DNA from: an uncultured Bifidobacteriaceae bacterium
GTDB lineage: Bacteria; Bacteroidota; Bacteroidia; Cytophagales; UBA9547
Direction: 5' to 3'
DNA: 64,000 nt
Assembly: GCA_964572965.1 (NCBI GenBank)
Contig: CAZNHL010000009.1
Location: forward strand, 4,836-68,835
The notes beneath the pieces were generated by a model. It did no database searches. It was given only the letters and a program-made list of their open reading frames with translations, and was not told the origin of the DNA. Shown one piece after another: positions 3,970-53,736 of the stretch (positions within the stretch are counted from its first letter, which is position 1; every line of letters starts with the position of its first letter). A program made the position numbers and the translations under genes.

Positions 3970-4875
3970 ATGGCAGACAAAAAAGATTTAGATTTTACAT
4001 ACACCACTATCGATGAGATATTTCGCCTGAGCATGGGTGAAAGCAGTGATTACAGTGGTGCAAAGTATGATGGTGATTTTACTATGTCACTGGAAGCGGC
4101 ACAAAAGGCTAAACACAAATTTATTGCCGATAGTTTAAATATTAAAGGAGGCAGCAAGGTGCTGGATATGGCTTGTGGCTGGGCACCATTTACCAATTAT
4201 ATTGTGAATGAAAGAGGTGCAGAAAGTATTGGCCTCACATTGTCACAAGGACAAGCCAATGCCTGTAAAGCAAACGGTTTCAATGTAATCGTACAGGATT
4301 GCCGTACTGTTAAACCCGAACATTTCGGAACATTCGATGCTATTACCTGTATTGGTGGCTTGGAACATTTTGTTTCTGTGGAAGAATATAAAGCGGGCAA
4401 GCAAGAGCAGATTTACAGAGACTTCTTCAAAACATTGAACGACCTTTTGCCCGTTGGGGGCAGGTTTTACATGCAGACTATGGTTTTTAGCAAAAACATG
4501 GTTGATTATGAAACAATCAGCGTAGATGCTCCAAAAGACTCTGCAGCTTATATGTGTGCATTAATGGTAAAACAGTTTCCCGGCTCATGGTTACCGTACG
4601 GTCCGGAAATGGTGATCAAAAATGCCGAACCTCATTTTAAACTGATTTCCCAAAGCAGCGGAAGACTGGATTACATCGAAACGATCGGCCAGTGGCGTAA
4701 GAAATTCCGGAAGTTTAACCTGAAAAAATACTGGCTCTACCTCTCTCTCGTTCCCAAGTTCATTACAGATCGTGAATTCAGGCATCAGGTAGCCGTTTTT
4801 AAAGTAAGCCCTAACAGGGTTTGTTTTGAAAAAGAAATTATGGATCACTACAGATTGGTATTTGAGAAAGTATAA
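3970..4875 (+). CDS. SAM-dependent methyltransferase, cyclopropane-fatty-acid/mycolic-acid synthase (CMAS)-like
   Basis: DYSGAKY, SLEAAQ.AK, VLDMACGW (SAM motif I), FDAITCIGGLEH, L..GGRF.MQT and FPGSWLP match Cfa/CMAS motifs. Confidence 0.85.
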   Translation: MADKKDLDFTYTTIDEIFRLSMGESSDYSGAKYDGDFTMSLEAAQKAKHKFIADSLNIKGGSKVLDMACGWAPFTNYIVNERGAESIGLTLSQGQANACKANGFNVIVQDCRTVKPEHFGTFDAITCIGGLEHFVSVEEYKAGKQEQIYRDFFKTLNDLLPVGGRFYMQTMVFSKNMVDYETISVDAPKDSAAYMCALMVKQFPGSWLPYGPEMVIKNAEPHFKLISQSSGRLDYIETIGQWRKKFRKFNLKKYWLYLSLVPKFITDREFRHQVAVFKVSPNRVCFEKEIMDHYRLVFEKV

Positions 4876-4877
4876 AT

Positions 4878-4909
4878 AATAGAAAGGGGGCTTAAGCCCC
4901 CTTTCTATT
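4878..4909. terminator. Bidirectional terminator, 32-bp perfect palindrome
   Basis: AATAGAAAGGGGGCTTAAGCCCCCTTTCTATT between convergent genes, overlapping the mlaD stop. Confidence 0.8.
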
Positions 4910-5609
4910 TCTTCTCTTGTTCTTTTTTCTGTTTTTCCTGCTCTTCCTTTTCCATTTTTTTGTAACCGCCTTTTAACAGGAAAGACCTTTTTGCAGCTTC
5001 CATGTTCTGACTAAAGCCTTTAGTTCCCTGTTTAAGGTTTACTATAGTAGTACCGAGGTTATCAGCAAACACAGTATCCATAAACAATTTTCCTACAGTA
5101 CCTTTCCCCCTTCTAATATTATGAGTAATTACAGCAAGGTCTGTAGTAATTTTAGCTGCATTGTCGGTAGTAACCCGAAGCTGGCTCATCAACTGATCCA
5201 TACTCACCGGTGTTTCAGTAATAATCACATCTCTGTCCTCTATGATTTCAGAGCTGGAACCGGGCACAATGTTAATGGCTTTATTACCCATCAGGCCTTC
5301 AGAAGATATTAATGCCAGGGCATCTTTTTTAATAAATTTTTTGGTCTCCGAGTTGATCACCATATCCACCCTTACAGTAGAATCAGTTACTATTTCTATC
5401 TTATCAATAATACCAACACTGATTCCGAGAAAGCGGACGTTATCGCCAACCATCAGGCCACTGACATTTTTAAATATCCCCTGTAACCTGAAAGTATTAC
5501 TGAAAAGTTGCTGGTGACTGCCTACCATGTATATTCCCAGAACAAACAAAGCAACGGCTGTTGATACAAATACTCCTAAAGTGATTTTATTCTTATTGTC
5601 CTTTTTCAT
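4905..5609 (-). CDS. mlaD: MlaD/MCE family substrate-binding protein
   Basis: N-terminal TM helix, MCE motifs GL.VGD.VRF.GI.VG.I and ISSEGLMGNK, helical C-terminus. Third gene of an E-F-D operon. Confidence 0.9.
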   Translation of the reverse strand: MKKDNKNKITLGVFVSTAVALFVLGIYMVGSHQQLFSNTFRLQGIFKNVSGLMVGDNVRFLGISVGIIDKIEIVTDSTVRVDMVINSETKKFIKKDALALISSEGLMGNKAINIVPGSSSEIIEDRDVIITETPVSMDQLMSQLRVTTDNAAKITTDLAVITHNIRRGKGTVGKLFMDTVFADNLGTTIVNLKQGTKGFSQNMEAAKRSFLLKGGYKKMEKEEQEKQKKEQEKK

Positions 5610-5623
5610 AACTGTAAATTTTT

Positions 5624-6385
5624 TTATTCAAAAAATGAACGGATCCATTCGTCATCCGATTTTCTTACTTCTTCATAAGTACCTTCAGCAACTACAAGAC
5701 CTTCCTTCAAAACTATTACACGGTTTGCTGTAAGGCGCGCGCACTCAATATCATGTGTGATAATGATTGAGGTTGTTTTATACTTTTTTTGCAGATCGAG
5801 AATAAGCTTACTTATTTCCTTAGAAGTAATAGGATCAAGACCTGTCGTAGGTTCATCATAAAGCATGATTTCCGGTTTCAATATCATCGTTCTTGCCAGA
5901 CCGACTCTTTTTCTCATACCACCTGAAAGTTCCGAAGGCATTTTGTCGATTGCTTTTTCAAGCCCTACATTGTCAAGCGCTTCTACCACCAAAGCATCTA
6001 TTTTCGTTTGTTTTAAACCTGAATCCCTTAAAGGAAACTCCAGATTTTCACGCACAGACATCGAATCGTATAAGGCAGCACTCTGAAACAAAAAGCCGAC
6101 TTTTTTTCTCGCAAGATTAAGTTCTTTTTCTTTGAGTTCAGACATGTTTTTCCCTAAAAGAACGACTTCACCCTCGTCGGCTTTCAGGAGCCGGATCATA
6201 CATTTGATCAAAACCGATTTTCCTGTACCCGATTTTCCCAACACAACAAGGTTTTCTCCTCTGCGGATACGTAAGCTTACTCCTTTGAGTACATGATGGT
6301 CTCCAAAAGACTTTTTGAGACCTTTAATATCAACTACAAATTCTGCATTTGTAATATCATCTATATTTTCTGCCTTTTCTTTCAT
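5624..6385 (-). CDS. mlaF: MlaF-type ABC transporter ATP-binding protein
   Basis: Walker A GKSGTGKS, Q-loop FQSAALYDSM, signature LSGGMRKR, Walker B MLYDEPTTGLDP, H-loop ITHD. Confidence 0.92.
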   Translation of the reverse strand: MKEKAENIDDITNAEFVVDIKGLKKSFGDHHVLKGVSLRIRRGENLVVLGKSGTGKSVLIKCMIRLLKADEGEVVLLGKNMSELKEKELNLARKKVGFLFQSAALYDSMSVRENLEFPLRDSGLKQTKIDALVVEALDNVGLEKAIDKMPSELSGGMRKRVGLARTMILKPEIMLYDEPTTGLDPITSKEISKLILDLQKKYKTTSIIITHDIECARLTANRVIVLKEGLVVAEGTYEEVRKSDDEWIRSFFE

Positions 6386-43652: not shown

Positions 43653-43692
43653 CAAATATTGCGAGATTATTTACAAATCTTGCAATATTTAC
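43653..43692. repeat. Palindromic site A (copy 1 of a direct-repeat pair flanking Fic-1)
   Basis: C-AAATATTGCGAGATT-ATTTACA-AATCTTGCAATATTT-AC: 15-bp arms with one mismatch and a 7-bp spacer. The right arm overlaps the Fic-1 stop codon. Confidence 0.9.
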
Positions 43693-44987
43693 ACATTATA
43701 GCTTTGTAAAACATCATCAAAGTTTTTTGATCTGATGAAGTTCTGTTTGATTTTATTTACCTGAATAATCTCCAGGAAACCCAATTCAACCAGCAGCTTC
43801 AGATCAGCACGCGCCGTAAAATTTGAGATGCTGAAACGTTTCTCTATTTCTTTGCTATTTAAAACCCTGTCGGCATCGTCGTTTACAATTTTCAGAATCT
43901 GAGCCATTCTGTCATTTACATTCGGGATCTTCAAAAACTTAGCGGCTTGTACTACTTCCTTCTGCTTTCTACTCATATAGTCCTTAAGCGCCTCAAAAGC
44001 CATTTCCATGGTTTTGATGTGGTAGGTAATAAAGTAGCTCAAATCATTGTCATCAATTTCAGTATACAGATATGCCTTTTCATACTGATTCTTACTATTC
44101 TGAATGATTCGGGATATCGACAAATATTCCGTCAGCCAATATCCTTTTTTCAGCATATACCAATAAAACAGCGCACGTGCCGTACGTCCGTTTCCATCAG
44201 TGAAAGGGTGGATCCAACCAATCATAAAATGAATTATACAACCTTTTATAATCGGATGGATAAAGCTCTTCGAATCATTATTAAAGAAAATACACAGTTC
44301 TTCAATTAGCTTTTCCAGTTCATCTTTCGGAGGCGGAATATGGACAATATCTCCGTTACTATTGTTGGCTACAAAAATCTCGTCATTCTCCCTGAAGTTG
44401 CCTTCTTCATTGGCATTATCCAGCGTTTTATAAGCTATCAGTCTGTGGATTTCAAGTAAACCTTCCGGCGTCAGGTCATCATTTTTATGCTGAATAATAT
44501 GCTTCATGGTCACATAATTATTCATAATCATCTGCTCCGATTTCGTTCTCGGCTTTTGCTCTTTCTGTATCAGTTCCTTGGCCTTCTTTCGTGTGGTATT
44601 CGCCCCTTCCATCTGGCTGCTGCTGATGGCTTCTTCCATAATGGAGCTGATAATAAACTTTGTTTTATCGGTTTCCGCAATGCTGATATTGCTACCCAAA
44701 GTACCTCCGATATTCAGGTCAAACTGATGCAGGGCACGCTGCATAAAATCAGTAATCACATAAGTAAACTGATGCTTCCCAAACTGCAGATGGCTTGCAT
44801 TGAGCGTTCTGTGTAATTTAACAGCATTCCAAAACTGGCTGGCATCGTGTGGTTTCGATTTATATTTGATCTTATCCCAATACAAATATTCGTCCTGGAC
44901 ATTTTTCAATACACCTGTCACCTGCAAATCTACCATGAGATTAACAGTAGTGCTGTCTTGCTTTGCGGATGGGGCTTTTTCTAACAT
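43689..44987 (-). CDS. Fic family protein 1 (class II, C-terminal winged HTH)
   Basis: Catalytic HPFTDGNGRTAR, inhibitory SSQMEG, C-terminal wHTH (KEIEKRFSISNFTARADLKLLVELGFL). Confidence 0.95.
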   Translation of the reverse strand: MLEKAPSAKQDSTTVNLMVDLQVTGVLKNVQDEYLYWDKIKYKSKPHDASQFWNAVKLHRTLNASHLQFGKHQFTYVITDFMQRALHQFDLNIGGTLGSNISIAETDKTKFIISSIMEEAISSSQMEGANTTRKKAKELIQKEQKPRTKSEQMIMNNYVTMKHIIQHKNDDLTPEGLLEIHRLIAYKTLDNANEEGNFRENDEIFVANNSNGDIVHIPPPKDELEKLIEELCIFFNNDSKSFIHPIIKGCIIHFMIGWIHPFTDGNGRTARALFYWYMLKKGYWLTEYLSISRIIQNSKNQYEKAYLYTEIDDNDLSYFITYHIKTMEMAFEALKDYMSRKQKEVVQAAKFLKIPNVNDRMAQILKIVNDDADRVLNSKEIEKRFSISNFTARADLKLLVELGFLEIIQVNKIKQNFIRSKNFDDVLQSYNV

Positions 44988-45014
44988 CTGATAGATTCAA
45001 TAGATCAATCTAAA

Positions 45015-45054
45015 CAAATATTGCGAGATATTGATATAATCTCGCAATATTTAC
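45015..45054. repeat. Palindromic site B (copy 2)
   Basis: C-AAATATTGCGAGAT-ATTGATATA-ATCTCGCAATATTT-AC: 14-bp perfect arms, same 37-bp length and same flanking C/AC as site A, 28 bp upstream of the Fic-1 ATG. Confidence 0.9.
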
Positions 45055-45067
45055 TTGAATTAATAGA

Positions 45068-46183
45068 CTAAACCCTAACTAATCTCATTAATGGCTCAAA
45101 TGAATACAAAGCAGGTCTTCTTCCTGAAGCAGCTTCCTTTTGTTTCAGATAACCATTTTCTATAAGTTTTTTTACCACCGCAGCAGCTGTTGCAACCGGA
45201 ATTTTAGTGTTACTGATAAATCTGTTATTTCTGAAAACAGGGTTAGTAAATACAAAGTCCAAAACACCCACACTCCATTTTGATGAAAGCAATTCAGAAA
45301 ATTCAACTTTCATTTCTTCATACAAGCTCCTGATATTTTCAGCAATCTGCAGGTTTTGAACTGCCTGCTTTTCTACAGCAATAAGGAAAAAACGTATCCA
45401 TGCATTCCAATCATTGGTTCTTGAAACATCTCTCATAGCCTCAATGTATGCATCTTTATTTTCTTCAAAATAGCCGCTAATATAGAAGTGTGGTTGCGAT
45501 AATACACCCGATTTCCAAAGTAATAATGTGATAAGCATTCTTCCTATTCTTCCGTTGCCATCCTGAAAAGGGTGCAAAGCTTCAAATTCAAGATGCGCTA
45601 CTGCCGTGCGTATAATAGGTGGTTCACTACTACCTTCCATATAAGCAAAAAGTTTGTCAAGGCCATCGGGCAGCTGTTCAGCACTGATTGGTACAAACTG
45701 GATTTTTTTTGCAGAGCGGTCGGCAAGATAATTTTGCTCTTTTTTAAACTCCCCGGGCGACTTTGTTGCTCCACGTCCAAAATACAATAATTGCTGGTGC
45801 ATTTGTTTAATAAAACTCTGAGAGAAAGGATAACCATCATTCAAAGCCGACTGTGCACTTTTCAACGCTCTTTGATATAAAACCGTCTCTACTACATCAC
45901 TTCTTGTTCCTTGTGGTTCAGTCCCGTCATCGTCAGCTTCGTACTCCAGTATTTCATCCATAGTACTGATTGTACCTTCTATTCTGGAAGATAAAACCGC
46001 TTCCCTGTTTCTAAGTGGGGCTAGCAAAATTTCGCTGTTATGCAGGTTTTTGAGCATCTGGTCAAAACGTGCCAATGCATCAGTAGCACTCAGCAGTTCT
46101 TGTATAAAAAACTCATACCGAATACCTATAGGCGGAAATTTATCGTAATGATAATGTACAGCCTCATCCAAATTGAAGTTCAT
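45068..46183 (-). CDS. Fic family protein 2 (Fic/DOC N-terminal domain, class II, C-terminal wHTH)
   Basis: EAVLSSRIEG, HLEFEALHPFQDGNGRIGR, LYISGYFE-like segment and C-terminal HTH (VATAAAVVKKLIENGYL). Confidence 0.95.
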   Translation of the reverse strand: MNFNLDEAVHYHYDKFPPIGIRYEFFIQELLSATDALARFDQMLKNLHNSEILLAPLRNREAVLSSRIEGTISTMDEILEYEADDDGTEPQGTRSDVVETVLYQRALKSAQSALNDGYPFSQSFIKQMHQQLLYFGRGATKSPGEFKKEQNYLADRSAKKIQFVPISAEQLPDGLDKLFAYMEGSSEPPIIRTAVAHLEFEALHPFQDGNGRIGRMLITLLLWKSGVLSQPHFYISGYFEENKDAYIEAMRDVSRTNDWNAWIRFFLIAVEKQAVQNLQIAENIRSLYEEMKVEFSELLSSKWSVGVLDFVFTNPVFRNNRFISNTKIPVATAAAVVKKLIENGYLKQKEAASGRRPALYSFEPLMRLVRV

Positions 46184-46190
46184 ATACTAG

Positions 46191-46406
46191 TTTGTCTACA
46201 ATAAAATGCATTTTCTATCATACAAGATAGCTTATCGACGGAAATTATCAAATAACAATACACAAAAGGTTTTGTCTACAAAAAACAACACACAAAACGG
46301 TTTGCCTACAAAAAAAGGCAAAAAACAGATGACAAAATGATTTGTCTACATAAAACAGCACCCAGGAAGCTTTGCCTACAAAAAATGAACAAAAACGGAT
46401 GACAAA
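46191..46406. repeat. Phased TTTGYCTACA direct-repeat array with a 70-bp tandem duplication, upstream of Fic-2
   Basis: 10-mers at 46191, 46271, 46301, 46341 and 46371 (spacings 80, 30, 40, 30); 46261-46330 and 46331-46400 are diverged duplicates. Confidence 0.85.
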
Positions 46407-46454: not shown

Positions 46455-46730
46455 ATGACAACTCAAAAATTTGCCTGTCCGTGCTGTGGCTACAAGACAT
46501 TCACAGAAGAAGCCCACGGTACTTATGATATTTGTGAGGTTTGTTACTGGGAAGACGACCCTAACCAGTTCGCAGATCCCGACGATGAAGATGGTGCAAA
46601 CAGGGTTTCATTGAGACAAGCACAAAAGAACTTTGCCGAGTTTGGAGCCTGCGAAAAAGAAATGGTTGCCAACGTAAGAAAACCCCATGCCGATGAAATG
46701 AGGGATAAGGATTGGAAGCCATTGGTATAA
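46455..46730 (+). CDS. CPCC-family cysteine-rich protein
   Basis: FACPCCGYKT, YDICEVCYWEDD and GAN.VSL.QAQKNF form the Cys_rich_CPCC pattern. Confidence 0.85.
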   Translation: MTTQKFACPCCGYKTFTEEAHGTYDICEVCYWEDDPNQFADPDDEDGANRVSLRQAQKNFAEFGACEKEMVANVRKPHADEMRDKDWKPLV

Positions 46731-47465: not shown

Positions 47466-48923
47466 TTATTCACTTAACCAGCTCGATTTCTTAGCCAAAG
47501 TAACAACACCAATGTTGTACGCATAAATGGCCGCCGGAACAAAAGTGACATTTAAACCATCTATTGTTTTGTTACCCGGTTGATCTATTGTTGTCACCAC
47601 TGAAGCATTAAAGTTATTTGCTTTACAGAAATGAACCAAACTATTCAATTCATTCGGTTTATCGAAATAACGGTTAGTCCATTTTACTTCCACGCTCCAT
47701 TGCGGTTTGAAAAGCTTACTATCTACCAGTACAATATCAACTTCCCCTTCAGAGCGACCCATTTTCCAACGTGCATACTTCAGGTCCAGGTTTTCTCTGT
47801 GCATCCATTGTGAAAAAATTGCTGTTTCCACCATATTTCCGGTTTCCGGATCAGTTTCCTGAATCGGTGAAAATAAAGCTGTTCTCAGCGACGGATTAGT
47901 GAGATAGACTTTGAAACTGGTAATGCGTTTAAACTTTTTAGCATTGTCATCTATTTTGTGTATGACTTTGATTAAGAAAGCCGCTTCAAGATATTCCAGG
48001 TATTTTTTGATGATATCACCTTTAATACCACTATCCGTTGCCAGTTTTTCAAAAGAAAACTCATTACCGGTATTGTAAGCCAGGTAACTGAAAAAACTAT
48101 TGAGCTCCTGTACATCTTTAATTCCATACAGACTCGGCAAATCTCTCAGCAATACTTTATCCACAATATCGCTTTTTACATAACGTCCCATATCGCTTTG
48201 AATCTTTTCAGAGAAAACGACTTCCGGATAACCCCCGAAATTGAGATACTGAAAAAACTCTTTGTTAAATGCCTTATGATCGTGTGTAGTGAAAAACGGC
48301 ACTTCCTTGTTATTATAAACGATAGATTTTGACTGGACTAAGTGACTCAAACCTTTCAGGTGTATGTATTCATGAAAAGTAAGTGGAGGCAACATAAAAT
48401 CTGTGAACCGCCCTGCACCACTTTCAGAACTTTGCAAACGCAATGCCGCAGCTGCAGAACCGGAAACAATAAACTTAGTTTTAGGATACATATCTACCAA
48501 CACTTTAAGGTGACGCTCCCAGTCTTTCATGTATTGAATCTCATCAAAGAAAACAAAGCAGCCTTCCAGATTTTCCAGTTTTACAGCTTCCTTACCTAAC
48601 AAAAGAATCTCTTCCAAACCCAGGTGCATATAAATCGGATTATCGATTCCGATAAAGAAGATCTTCTGAGGTGGTACACCTTCAGTTATCAGCTCCTGAA
48701 TGGCATGAAACATCATCACAGTTTTGCCCACACGGCGCGGCCCCATCAACACGACCGCTCTTTTAACTTCTGTTTCTTTTACAAATGGATAAAACAAGTC
48801 AAAATAGAGACGTTTTGACATTTCGCGATAGACCTGCTGTACCTCGCCGGTTAGCCACCAGGGGTTTTCGTATTGCAAACGCTCTATCCGTTTGGCTGTT
48901 GGAATAACATGATTGAAATCCAT
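47466..48923 (-). CDS. AAA+ ATPase (AAA_14) with central wHTH and C-terminal DUF4143/PD-(D/E)XK-like domain
   Basis: Walker A GPRRVGKT, Walker B VFFDEIQ, VSGSA, YL.FGGYPE, G.MVET and EVDIV...SVEVKW. Confidence 0.9.
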   Translation of the reverse strand: MDFNHVIPTAKRIERLQYENPWWLTGEVQQVYREMSKRLYFDLFYPFVKETEVKRAVVLMGPRRVGKTVMMFHAIQELITEGVPPQKIFFIGIDNPIYMHLGLEEILLLGKEAVKLENLEGCFVFFDEIQYMKDWERHLKVLVDMYPKTKFIVSGSAAAALRLQSSESGAGRFTDFMLPPLTFHEYIHLKGLSHLVQSKSIVYNNKEVPFFTTHDHKAFNKEFFQYLNFGGYPEVVFSEKIQSDMGRYVKSDIVDKVLLRDLPSLYGIKDVQELNSFFSYLAYNTGNEFSFEKLATDSGIKGDIIKKYLEYLEAAFLIKVIHKIDDNAKKFKRITSFKVYLTNPSLRTALFSPIQETDPETGNMVETAIFSQWMHRENLDLKYARWKMGRSEGEVDIVLVDSKLFKPQWSVEVKWTNRYFDKPNELNSLVHFCKANNFNASVVTTIDQPGNKTIDGLNVTFVPAAIYAYNIGVVTLAKKSSWLSE

Positions 48924-52503: not shown

Positions 52504-53577
52504 CTATCTTTTAGACAACAATTCAAACAAGCGTGTATTGATATAATAGTTTCCGGTTCCTAGTTTGGCTTTTTGCAAAAGGCCGTCTTCTGCCAGTTTG
52601 TTCAAATAGGAAGCTGCTGTTATTCTGGAAACTCCCAGATCATTCATCAGGAATTCTATTTTTGTATAAGGGTGTTTGAATAAATTATTCAACAAATCCT
52701 GGCTGTAAAACTTATAGTTTTCCCGTAACTCATACTTATAGGTTTGCATCAGTTTTTTTATCTGGCCGATAAGCTCAATCGTTTCTTTAGAAGTTTCTTC
52801 TATGCCTTTGATCATAAAGAGTAGCCATTCTTCCCAATTTTTCTTATCACGCACTTCTTGAAGCAGTCTGTAATAATCTGCTTTGTGTTTGATAATATAG
52901 CTACTCAAATAGAGGATCGGTAAGTTTTGCAGGTTTTCGAGGATAAGATAGAGAATATTCACAATCCGGCCAGTTCTGCCGTTTCCGTCATAAAATGGAT
53001 GAATACTTTCAAACTGATAATGGATAACAGCCATTTTAACGAGTGCGTCATATTCACTGAATTCCTTGTTATTGATAAAGGACTCCAGGTTGGCCATCAG
53101 ACTATCGATCTCATCATAACTTTGAGGAGGTGTATAAACAACTTCACCGGTTTGTGCATTTTTCAGGTTTGTGCCGGGCAGTTTTCTGAAGCCTGCTTTG
53201 TTTCGTTCCAATTCTTCCTGAATAATGAGAATGGTTTTATTGGTAATCAGCCCGCTTGCCGATGTCAGTTCAAAACCCTTCTTTAAGGCTGATATATAAT
53301 TCTGCACTTCTTTAGCATTTAATGAATTGAGTGCTTCAAAATTCAACTCTGACTTATACAGATCGTCATGTGTCGTAATGATATTTTCAATAGCTGAACT
53401 GTCTTTTGCTTCCTGTAAACCAAGGGTATTGATAAGAATATGCTGGTTCGGAATTGTAGAGGCTACTCCCTTCAATTCTGCCAAAGCAGCATGCGCAGCT
53501 GGCAGGCTCTTTAAAACCTTGATAGTCTCGAGATCATGCTTTACAGGTAACGGTTCTAATTTCCAGTTTGTCTCCAT
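52504..53577 (-). CDS. Fic family protein 3 (class II, C-terminal wHTH)
   Basis: QEAKDSSAIENI, HYQFESIHPFYDGNGRTGR and wHTH (LGVSRITAASYLNKLAEDGLL). True start ATG 53577 (METNW); the ORF-track extension reads through the repeat array. Confidence 0.95.
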   Translation of the reverse strand: METNWKLEPLPVKHDLETIKVLKSLPAAHAALAELKGVASTIPNQHILINTLGLQEAKDSSAIENIITTHDDLYKSELNFEALNSLNAKEVQNYISALKKGFELTSASGLITNKTILIIQEELERNKAGFRKLPGTNLKNAQTGEVVYTPPQSYDEIDSLMANLESFINNKEFSEYDALVKMAVIHYQFESIHPFYDGNGRTGRIVNILYLILENLQNLPILYLSSYIIKHKADYYRLLQEVRDKKNWEEWLLFMIKGIEETSKETIELIGQIKKLMQTYKYELRENYKFYSQDLLNNLFKHPYTKIEFLMNDLGVSRITAASYLNKLAEDGLLQKAKLGTGNYYINTRLFELLSKR

Positions 53578-53582
53578 AGTAC

Positions 53583-53736
53583 TATGTAAAGATTTTGCTG
53601 TTTTCTTTACATAGCAAAACCTATATGTAAAGAAAATCAATTTTTCTTTACATATGCAAAGTGTTATGTAAAGATTTTGCCGTTTTCTTTACATAGCAAA
53701 CCTCATATGTAAAGAAAAGTTAAAAATCTTTACAGA
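53583..53736. repeat. Four palindromic units TATGTAAAGA-N11-TCTTTACATA at an exact 41-bp period
   Basis: Left arms at 53583, 53624, 53665 and 53706; units 1+2 and 3+4 form an 82-bp duplication. The last right arm is TCTTTACAGA. Confidence 0.95.

Follow-up and report, generated by a model that had tools for sequence, protein, structure and literature searches.

Why should a single gene be enclosed, almost to the nucleotide, by two copies of one palindrome? The gene in question, here called Fic-1, encodes a Fic protein and lies in a 64,000-nucleotide stretch of contig CAZNHL010000009.1 (the window, below) from the genome of an uncultured bacterium. An earlier note on this DNA had described two 37-bp palindromes, sites A and B, tightly bracketing Fic-1, and had read them either as part of a cassette acted on by a recombinase or as paired operators for the winged helix-turn-helix (wHTH) at the C-terminus of the Fic protein itself. 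Our comparative analysis leads us to favor operators: both palindromes are probably binding sites of Fic-1's own wHTH, which would form an autorepression switch with a second copy at the end of the gene. The parts of this explanation do not stand equally firm. That the upstream site is an operator read by Fic-1 itself appears very likely, that the downstream site is bound by the same protein and is functional appears reasonably likely, and looping between the two sites is a doubtful addition. The features on which the argument turns are as follows.

Site A, 43654-43690, minus strand: AAATATTGCGAGAT-TATTTACAA-ATCTTGCAATATTT; putative downstream operator copy, running from the second base of the Fic-1 TAA.
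Site B, 45016-45052, minus strand: AAATATTGCGAGAT-ATTGATATA-ATCTCGCAATATTT; putative upstream operator of Fic-1, with its dyad center at 45034.
Fic-1, 43689..44987, minus strand: 432 amino acids, class II Fic AMP-transferase by open reading frame (ORF), profile, sequence, and fold matches.
Fic-1 C-terminal wHTH, 43728..43925, minus strand: residues ~355-420, from the secondary structure of an AlphaFold2 model.
Putative -7 box, 45005..45012, minus strand: TAGATTGA, an imperfect Bacteroidetes -7 box assigned by position, starting 22 bp from the site B dyad center.
Fic-2, 45068..46183, minus strand: 371 amino acids, a neighboring full-length SoFic-type gene outside the bracketed unit.

Direct reading confirmed the coordinates, flanks, and overlaps of the bracketing pair. 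Both sites have a C before them and AC after them. Site A shares two bases with the Fic-1 TAA stop codon, and site B lies 28 nt upstream of the Fic-1 ATG and 15 nt past the Fic-2 stop. A repeat finder run on the window reports the two sites as a 40-nt direct repeat with 80% identity, each copy being self-complementary. The functional unit within each site is the 8-mer TTGCGAGA and its complement TCTCGCAA, 11 nt apart, which leaves 9 nt between the 14-nt arms. On the gene strand, site A reads TTGCAAGA-N11-TCTCGCAA, with one change at a nearly invariant G in the stop-proximal half-site. When up to two mismatches are allowed, the arm has five matches in the window against 0.97 expected, and four of these are the arms of sites A and B. 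Across the whole 4.45-Mb, 168-contig genome, the full palindrome is found at sites A and B only, the exact 14-nt arm is confined to the same two sites, and one additional single arm appears at one mismatch. The bracketing pair is therefore beyond chance, as the full palindrome occurs at only these two places in the genome. The possibility raised by the earlier note that the motif is a common genome-wide repeat does not survive this count of two copies. A genome-wide or repetitive extragenic palindromic (REP)-like repeat was likewise rejected at the level of the order, where the motif turned up in two of 401 genomes together with one chance hairpin.

The Palindrome Upstream of Fic-1 and Its Orthologues

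A metagenome scan with the Fic-1 protein returned 80 orthologous loci (58-75% amino acid identity), which make up a set of 83 when the window and the loci L045 and L130 are included. A scan of 185,579 species for TATTGCRAGA-N0-30-TCTYGCAATA was also performed; the matches listed were mostly chance TTGCAAGA hairpins, and the useful ones among them were L045, L059, L130, L016, and L063. An 8+11+8 palindrome of the TTGCGAGA-N11-TCTCGCAA type lies 30-60 bp before the ATG in 81 of the 83 loci, the other two being L202, a 5'-truncated pseudogene, and L212. With this count, the arm motif tracks the Fic-1 subfamily in Bacteroidota.

The position of the palindrome is as regular as its sequence. In 64 of the 81 loci, the dyad center is followed at 20-22 bp by the start of an exact TAnnTTTG -7 box, and the last two positions of the box in the window, TAGATTGA, deviate from this consensus. 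Because the -7 box begins 20-22 bp after the dyad center, the upstream palindrome is predicted to be centered on the -33 region, upstream of the transcription start and outside the Fic-1 mRNA. A dimer of the Fic-1 wHTH bound to site B at the -33 region would then repress its own potentially toxic gene.

Among the window's family of 22 genomes, the motif is present in one other, a Cytophagales metagenome-assembled genome (MAG; contig REAG01000033.1, locus L045) whose Fic-1 orthologue is 69% identical. Upstream of this gene, TATTGCGAGA occurs three times in direct orientation and once inverted (F-F-F-R), and a mirror-image array, F-R-R-R, sits at the stop codon and again 84 bp later. The contig ends inside the second copy of this tandem duplication (L006/L045, 5033-5153, 84-bp period), which may be an assembly break at a repeat. 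Extra direct half-sites at a 10-bp phase are found at many loci, for example L045, L153, L185, L188, and L200-208, an arrangement that fits cooperative binding by a protein and is unlike a hairpin. These half-sites also qualify the "asymmetric spacer" of the earlier note. The spacers of sites A and B do differ (TATTTACAA vs ATTGATATA), and in many relatives what looks like a spacer is a degenerate third half-site in 10-bp phase.

Symmetry of the Arms and Covariation with the Protein

Evidence for a protein reader comes from how the arms change. Among 70 distinct upstream sites, a core of C-G-(A)-G-A is almost invariant, and the position pairs 8/34, 9/33, 10/32, 13/29, 5/37, and 6/36 are 96-100% complementary while using several pair types, a level that none of 1000 column shuffles reached. 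The pair types are T:A, A:T, and C:G at 8/34; T:A, C:G, and A:T at 9/33; G:C, A:T, and T:A at 10/32; and A:T and T:A at 13/29. Conserved sequence combined with symmetric change is the pattern expected of a dimer-binding site. It points to a dimeric protein as the reader and not to a free hairpin, because a hairpin could change its sequence freely.

If Fic-1 is the reader, then departures from the standard core should be accompanied by changes in its wHTH. We inspected the recognition helix directly in place of a mutual-information scan and found three operator variants with such changes.

Operator TTGGCTGA/TCAGCCAA, L177: N389K and R393Q in the recognition helix.
Operator TTGCGTGA/TCACGCAA, L192-L201: His390, where all other loci have Phe or Tyr.
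Operator CCNCGAGA, eight loci: wing Gln413, against Lys, Ile, or another residue at all other loci.

The first variant can be viewed against a close relative, L180, which has the standard TTGCGAGA core. The L177 and L180 proteins are 93.5% identical and differ at 28 residues, N389K and R393Q among them, and the spacers and flanks of their operators are alike. Arg393, changed in L177, is invariant across 45 other orthologues. The Fic protein is also the only protein that travels with the site. The coincidence of operator switches with residues of the wHTH predicted to read DNA is suggestive of direct recognition.

The Fic-1 Protein

The protein itself has the parts that such a role calls for. 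Fic-1 matches the Pfam Fic family at 4e-20 and has a weak DUF4172-like match, and its Pfam HTH_11 match is weak (7e-4) and under the cut-off. Against the PADLOC SoFic model it scores 2.8e-45, covering profile positions 41-349 of 361, and SoFic chains from the PDB align to residues 119-418 with E values of ~1e-12. The catalytic motif HxFx(D/E)GNGRxxR is present as HPFTDGNGRTAR, and H260, P261, F262, D264, G265, N266, G267, R268, and R271 are invariant in 45 Fic-1 orthologues. The inhibitory helix motif of class II Fic enzymes, (S/T)xxxE(G/N), is found as SSSQMEGA at residues 122-129, with S123, S124, Q125, E127, and G128 invariant in the same orthologues.

An AlphaFold2 model built from the 45 orthologues (mean predicted local distance difference test score of 81) ends in a winged helix composed of helices 359-370 and 378-385, a recognition helix at ~388-401 (SNFTARADL...), and a two-strand wing at 405-419. 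Within the recognition helix, S388, T391, A392, R393, and D395 are invariant. The top fold matches of the model are SoFic (3ZEC/3ZCN/3EQX), 7XUX, and Coxiella burnetii Fic2, with a Foldseek value of 1.9e-10 for SoFic. Sequence and model together assign Fic-1 to the SoFic/CccR-type class II Fic-wHTH enzymes, predicted to be AMP-transferases that act as toxins or anti-phage effectors.

The Copy at the Stop Codon

The more unusual element of the locus is site A. At 25 of the 83 loci, a palindrome of the same kind lies at or over the stop codon, with an offset of -3 to +3 in most, and the TAA or TAG sits within the A-rich outer part of an arm. When mapped onto a maximum-likelihood tree of 80 proteins, the downstream site is present in 20 of the 22 rows of the window's clade, which has 100/98 support. 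Of the two exceptions in this clade, L137 instead has a pair of palindromes upstream, and the L212 contig ends 3 nt past the stop. Outside the clade there are two further origins: at L195 the site begins 17 nt past the stop, and at L207-211 it straddles the stop so that its left arm encodes the last codons. A more distant homologue from a sequence labeled "Bacteriophage sp." (L213, MT840011.1, 46% identical) also has upstream and downstream palindromes, built on TCTTGCAA/TTGCAAGA and sharing a 20-nt direct repeat. This distribution indicates that the downstream copy is ancestral to the 100/98 clade and arose at least twice elsewhere.

The genomic contexts within the clade are unrelated to one another. 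In the window, an efflux operon converges on Fic-1. In L200, L203, L206, and L208, hsdS and hsdR of a type I restriction-modification (R-M) system flank the Fic module; in L130/L184, L188, and L199, the module follows a tyrosine recombinase gene; and in L183, a neighboring gene was read as Tex-like from its N-terminal sequence. Because the downstream site is kept with the gene through these unrelated contexts, it is likely functional and not a scar. The fixed insertion scar that the earlier note had entertained was rejected on the conservation of the site across a deep clade. In the R-M-embedded loci (L200, L203, L206, L208, and L130/L184), hsdR begins ~17 nt past the downstream palindrome with no promoter box between the two.

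The two sites of a locus also resemble each other more than chance would have it. Upstream and downstream full sites are identical at 34.7 of 41 positions within a locus and at 31.3 between loci. For the spacer, the values are 8.8 of 11 within a locus and 7.1 between loci, a difference that none of 10,000 permutations matched (p<1e-4). In the sister loci L179 and L183, the same base differs in all four arms. In some loci (L208 and L200), the upstream and downstream spacers are reverse complementary, as expected if short palindromes flip their loops. By these comparisons, the upstream and downstream sites appear to evolve in concert.

What might a second operator at the stop codon do? Site A is likely bound by the same protein and would act as a boundary element. 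As a roadblock or insulator, it could stop transcription leaving the toxin gene or entering from the convergent efflux operon; alternatively, it could provide the second anchor of a repression loop.

The Fic ORF of L178 is cut to 104 amino acids and directly followed by a second Fic fragment (..DKTKFMISSIMEEAISSSQIEGA), and a second palindrome with the arm variant TAGCGAGA is located 315 bp upstream of the locus's own TTGCGAGA site. L178 could be a decaying tandem array.

A Module with Sharp Borders

The upstream palindrome and the stop codon coincide with the borders of a unit that is found in different surroundings. In nine locus pairs with 80-91.5% DNA identity, a 1.36-1.40-kb stretch is the only homology within 5-7 kb. 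On one side it is bounded by the upstream palindrome's outer edge (about -52 to -105) and on the other by the stop codon (0 to +10). A breakpoint on the downstream side is visible when L210 is compared with L207, L209, and L211. These loci are 98% identical on either side of a replaced segment (4326-4729 / 4326-5654), which is 404 bp long and encodes one small protein in L210 and is 1329 bp long in L207, where the translations alone suggest a Crp/Fnr-like regulator and a small membrane protein. At least two solo operator copies have no Fic gene within reach. The copy in L016 (1817-1870) lies between an epimerase-like gene and gltX, which look like housekeeping genes by their N-terminal sequences only, and the copy in L063 (5390-5440) is followed by a decayed -7 box and a fragment of an ADP-ribosylglycohydrolase gene. 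Neither solo site can be tied to excision.

From its recurrence in unrelated contexts with sharp borders, the operator-to-stop unit appears to behave as a discrete moving module, and the earlier note's treatment of the gene as a discrete unit holds to this extent. Its borders could result from palindrome-stimulated illegitimate recombination, and trimming by selection in fast-turning defense islands is another possibility. A real site-directed mechanism seems improbable.

Weighing the Explanations

One challenge to an operator comes from these same borders. The palindromes could mark the termini of a mobile cassette of one gene, or serve as its recombination sites, with the recombinase or transposase encoded elsewhere and the Fic wHTH possibly as an accessory, although we regard this as unlikely. 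The cassette would account for the nine locus pairs that share nothing within 5-7 kb beyond the segment from outer palindrome edge to stop, and for the divergence of L210 from L207/209/211 precisely where the downstream palindrome has its outer edge. The mirror-image arrays F-F-F-R and F-R-R-R, a feature of L045 alone, resemble terminal inverted repeats, solo sites are found in L016 and L063, and a tyrosine recombinase gene lies directly upstream in L130/L184, L188, and L199. Yet the presence of these recombinases has another explanation in their type I R-M or xerD-like surroundings, the 9-11-nt spacing is unlike that of tyrosine-recombinase sites, and the spacers in the window differ from each other. 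The 80.8-kb contig encodes no integrase (PF00589), the genome's six being on other contigs, and there is no transposase ORF in the bracketed unit. No target-site duplication is present, as the outer flanks ..TATTTTTTC| and |ACTTGAATT.. share none, and a transposon with terminal inverted repeats or a MITE carrying a passenger gene finds no support in these features. The arms change with the recognition helix of the cargo, which is unexpected for a site of a host recombinase, and most orthologues have the same sharp right border at the stop without having a downstream site. No deletion or circle joints between the sites were found in the Logan contigs of three metagenome runs, a search of low power at 3-7x depth; the two joints listed have sides of 20-23 nt and come from other contigs. 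The tyrosine-recombinase cassette proposed in the earlier note is thus disfavored by a spacing of 9-11 nt instead of 6-8 nt, by the lack of an integrase on the contig, and by sites that follow the lineage of their cargo. A combination of the two ideas is equally hard to credit. In it, a self-silencing toxin cassette would use its operator arrays as borders for excision and for movement between defense islands and type I R-M operons. Such movement would proceed via palindrome-directed recombination or an unrecognized activity recruited by the wHTH, and between hsdS and hsdR the downstream array would place hsdR under control of the toxin-repressor.

A different kind of alternative grants the upstream operator and takes the downstream palindrome for a mere RNA or DNA hairpin, a terminator or insulator that resembles the upstream site through gene conversion and is unused by protein. 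We give this little credence. Both window sites do fold stably (-15 to -22.6 kcal/mol, z-scores of -4 to -7), the arms are bordered by A-runs and T-runs in many loci, the palindrome satisfies the canonical terminator rule in seven of the 25 loci with a downstream copy, and orthologues without this copy often have hairpin-plus-T-run terminators at the same place. However, neither window site was called by a terminator scan, their loops being 7-9 nt and their tails UAUUUG or UAUUUAC, and 18 of the 25 downstream sites have no T-tail, including those that precede a co-directional hsdR by ~17 nt without an intervening promoter. A pure terminator would have no reason to keep the operator 8-mer over a deep clade, and the extra direct half-sites at 10-bp phase in L045, L153, and L130 would be unexpected. 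The canonical intrinsic terminator was rejected as a candidate, as the sites are not systematically terminator-like in the window or among the relatives. Less probable still is that site A is the leftover operator of a third tandem Fic cassette, since deleted, that once followed Fic-1. Its appeal is that site B adjoins the preceding Fic gene, 15 nt past the Fic-2 stop, that L137 (100-250 bp from its own) and L178 have a second upstream palindrome, with a Fic fragment following in L178, and that the solo site in L063 is an operator with a degenerate -7 box and no gene. Retention in 20 of 22 clade members, the unrelated contexts, and the fixed offset from the stop indicate selection and not decay, and no remnant of a -7 box follows site A or the downstream sites embedded in R-M operons.

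Several points weigh against operators at both ends of the gene. All of the support is comparative, and helical phasing is uninformative on looping at a separation of 1.36 kb. An operator role does not by itself account for the sharp module borders or for the breakpoint on the outer side of the downstream palindrome. The switches in protein-operator specificity each represent one evolutionary event, and column-wise mutual information between residues and operator class was swamped by phylogeny and high-entropy columns and is indecisive. In the window, a nearly invariant G of the core is changed to A in one half-site of site A, which may therefore bind weakly. About 70% of orthologues have no downstream copy, so this copy is dispensable for autoregulation, and gene conversion, rather than a shared reader, could be behind the similarity of the upstream and downstream sites. 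From the comparison we infer binding, repression, and a role for the downstream site. The earlier note's proposal that the palindromes are operators of the Fic wHTH is strongly supported for the upstream site by its conservation in 81 of 83 loci, the covariation of its arms, and the accompanying changes in recognition helix and wing; for the downstream site, it is plausible.

Neighboring Fic Genes and More Distant Relatives

The window contains more than one gene of this type. Fic-2 carries the Pfam domains Fic_N and Fic and matches the PADLOC SoFic model at 8.3e-110. A gene for a 485-residue AAA_14/DUF4143 ATPase (47466-48923) matches PADLOC PDC-S01 (1.4e-56), and together with a gene for a Cys-rich CPCC protein (46455-46730, Pfam 3e-33), it flanks the Fic genes. 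The neighborhood of Fic-1 appears to be a defense island. Upstream of Fic-2, at 46169-46388, there are five copies of ~TTTGYCTACAAAAAA with spacings of 80, 30, 40, and 30 bp, probably a private operator array of the Fic-2 wHTH, with a sequence unrelated to the Fic-1 palindrome. A third Fic gene (~52552-53562, minus strand) is 25% identical to Fic-2, and directly upstream of it, at 53583-53736 on the same strand, are four TTCTTTACATA-N-TATGTAAAGAA palindromes with a period of ~41 bp. Each Fic-wHTH paralogue of the island seems to have its own operator.

Similar dyads are also found farther afield. Among four Spirochaetota/Leptospirales MAG contigs (L079, L117, L058, and L031), three have TTATTGCAAGAT-N8-ATCTTGCAATAA upstream of genes resembling Fic-2 (31-35% identity to it), at a distance of ~150-200 bp, and the fourth has it at the end of the locus. 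Dyads of the TTGCRAGA type may therefore be in wider use by SoFic-type wHTH domains. Plasmid and phage collections gave distant homologues only (36-46% identity). One of these, a Fic family gene that is 36% identical (L214, 83337-84710 of the Klebsiella pneumoniae plasmid NZ_CP084826.1), is preceded by a perfect palindrome with 13-bp arms, TTAACTCAATTTT-CGTC-AAAATTGAGTTAA, which ends 6 nt before the ATG, and is followed by an ordinary terminator past the stop. No operator was obvious at a Vibrio homologue from the same collections. Judging from L214, the use of an operator seems to extend past Bacteroidota, with differing sequences.

Implications

SoFic-type Fic proteins are a widespread anti-phage or toxin family, and how they are silenced has only lately begun to be worked out (CccR in 2022 and SoFic in 2025-26). 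To this picture the present locus would add the operator of a large Bacteroidota subfamily in sharply defined form, TTGCGAGA-N11-TCTCGCAA. The natural specificity switches point to N389/R393, F/Y390, and wing position 413 as candidate DNA-reading residues. The locus also suggests a recurrent design in which a toxin gene is set between two copies of its own operator. Three questions follow. What insulates a toxin encoded by a single gene from the DNA around it? Do private operators prevent cross-talk between paralogues that share an island? And what gives the traveling operator-to-stop unit such sharp borders?

Comparison with Known Systems

The closest precedent in function is CccR of Yersinia pseudotuberculosis, a class II Fic toxin with a C-terminal helix-turn-helix (HTH) that serves as an effector of a type VI secretion system (PMC9755527). 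Repression of its own promoter by CccR requires dimerization and is exerted through an inverted repeat that the dimer binds; mutation of the palindrome leads to derepression (PMC9755527). From N- to C-terminus, CccR and Fic-1 share an inhibitory SxxxEG helix, then a Fic core, then an HTH, and 7XUX, which is probably CccR judging by its protein length of 380 amino acids and its release date, is among the best fold matches. The operators differ in geometry: that of CccR has 10-bp repeats 26 bp apart, whereas that of Fic-1 has 8-mers 11 bp apart, often with extra half-sites in 10-bp phase. A second operator has not been described for the 3' end of cccR, and the identity of CccR to Fic-1 is ~19% in a structural alignment. 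The closest precedent in sequence is SoFic of Shewanella oneidensis (SO_4266), which binds as a dimer to the 100 bp that lie immediately upstream of its gene; the same preprint places SoFic, 7XUX, and Coxiella Fic2 in one DNA-binding Fic group (bioRxiv 10.64898/2026.07.09.737422). SoFic has the domain order of Fic-1 and is its best hidden Markov model, sequence, and fold match. The operator sequence of SoFic is undefined in that study, and no bracketing sites have been reported for it (bioRxiv 10.64898/2026.07.09.737422). Fic-1 has ~60 extra N-terminal residues, and Fic-2 is the closer relative of SoFic (8.3e-110).

Operator pairs and gene-flanking repeats from other settings provide further comparisons. 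Phage lambda CI at OL-OR, LacI at O1/O2/O3, and DeoR all have operator copies both at the promoter and at a distance that are bound by one oligomerizing repressor. In Fic-1, unlike in these systems, the second site is exactly at the stop codon, and the pair brackets the gene of the regulator itself. We know of no oligomerization above the dimer in the Fic-1 family. Pairs of pdif, lox, or FRT sites resemble the Fic-1 pair in having inverted arms around a central spacer and two copies that flank a gene, but their spacers are 6-8 nt as compared to 9-11 nt at the Fic-1 sites, and the Fic-1 arms follow the wHTH of the cargo. For the R-M-embedded relatives L200, L203, L206, and L208, there is an analogue of position in prrC, an abortive-infection toxin gene of the EcoprrI type I R-M system, which we take to occupy the same place between hsdS and hsdR. 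PrrC is unlike Fic-1 in being an anticodon nuclease with no DNA-binding domain or operators, and the Fic-1 gene in the window is not in an R-M operon. Autorepression by a Fic-wHTH toxin is already known, and site B would add to it a different and well-defined operator geometry. The noteworthy variant is the predicted second operator at the stop codon, which is found in one clade and at least two independent lineages and brackets the toxin gene between two copies of the site that its own product appears to read.

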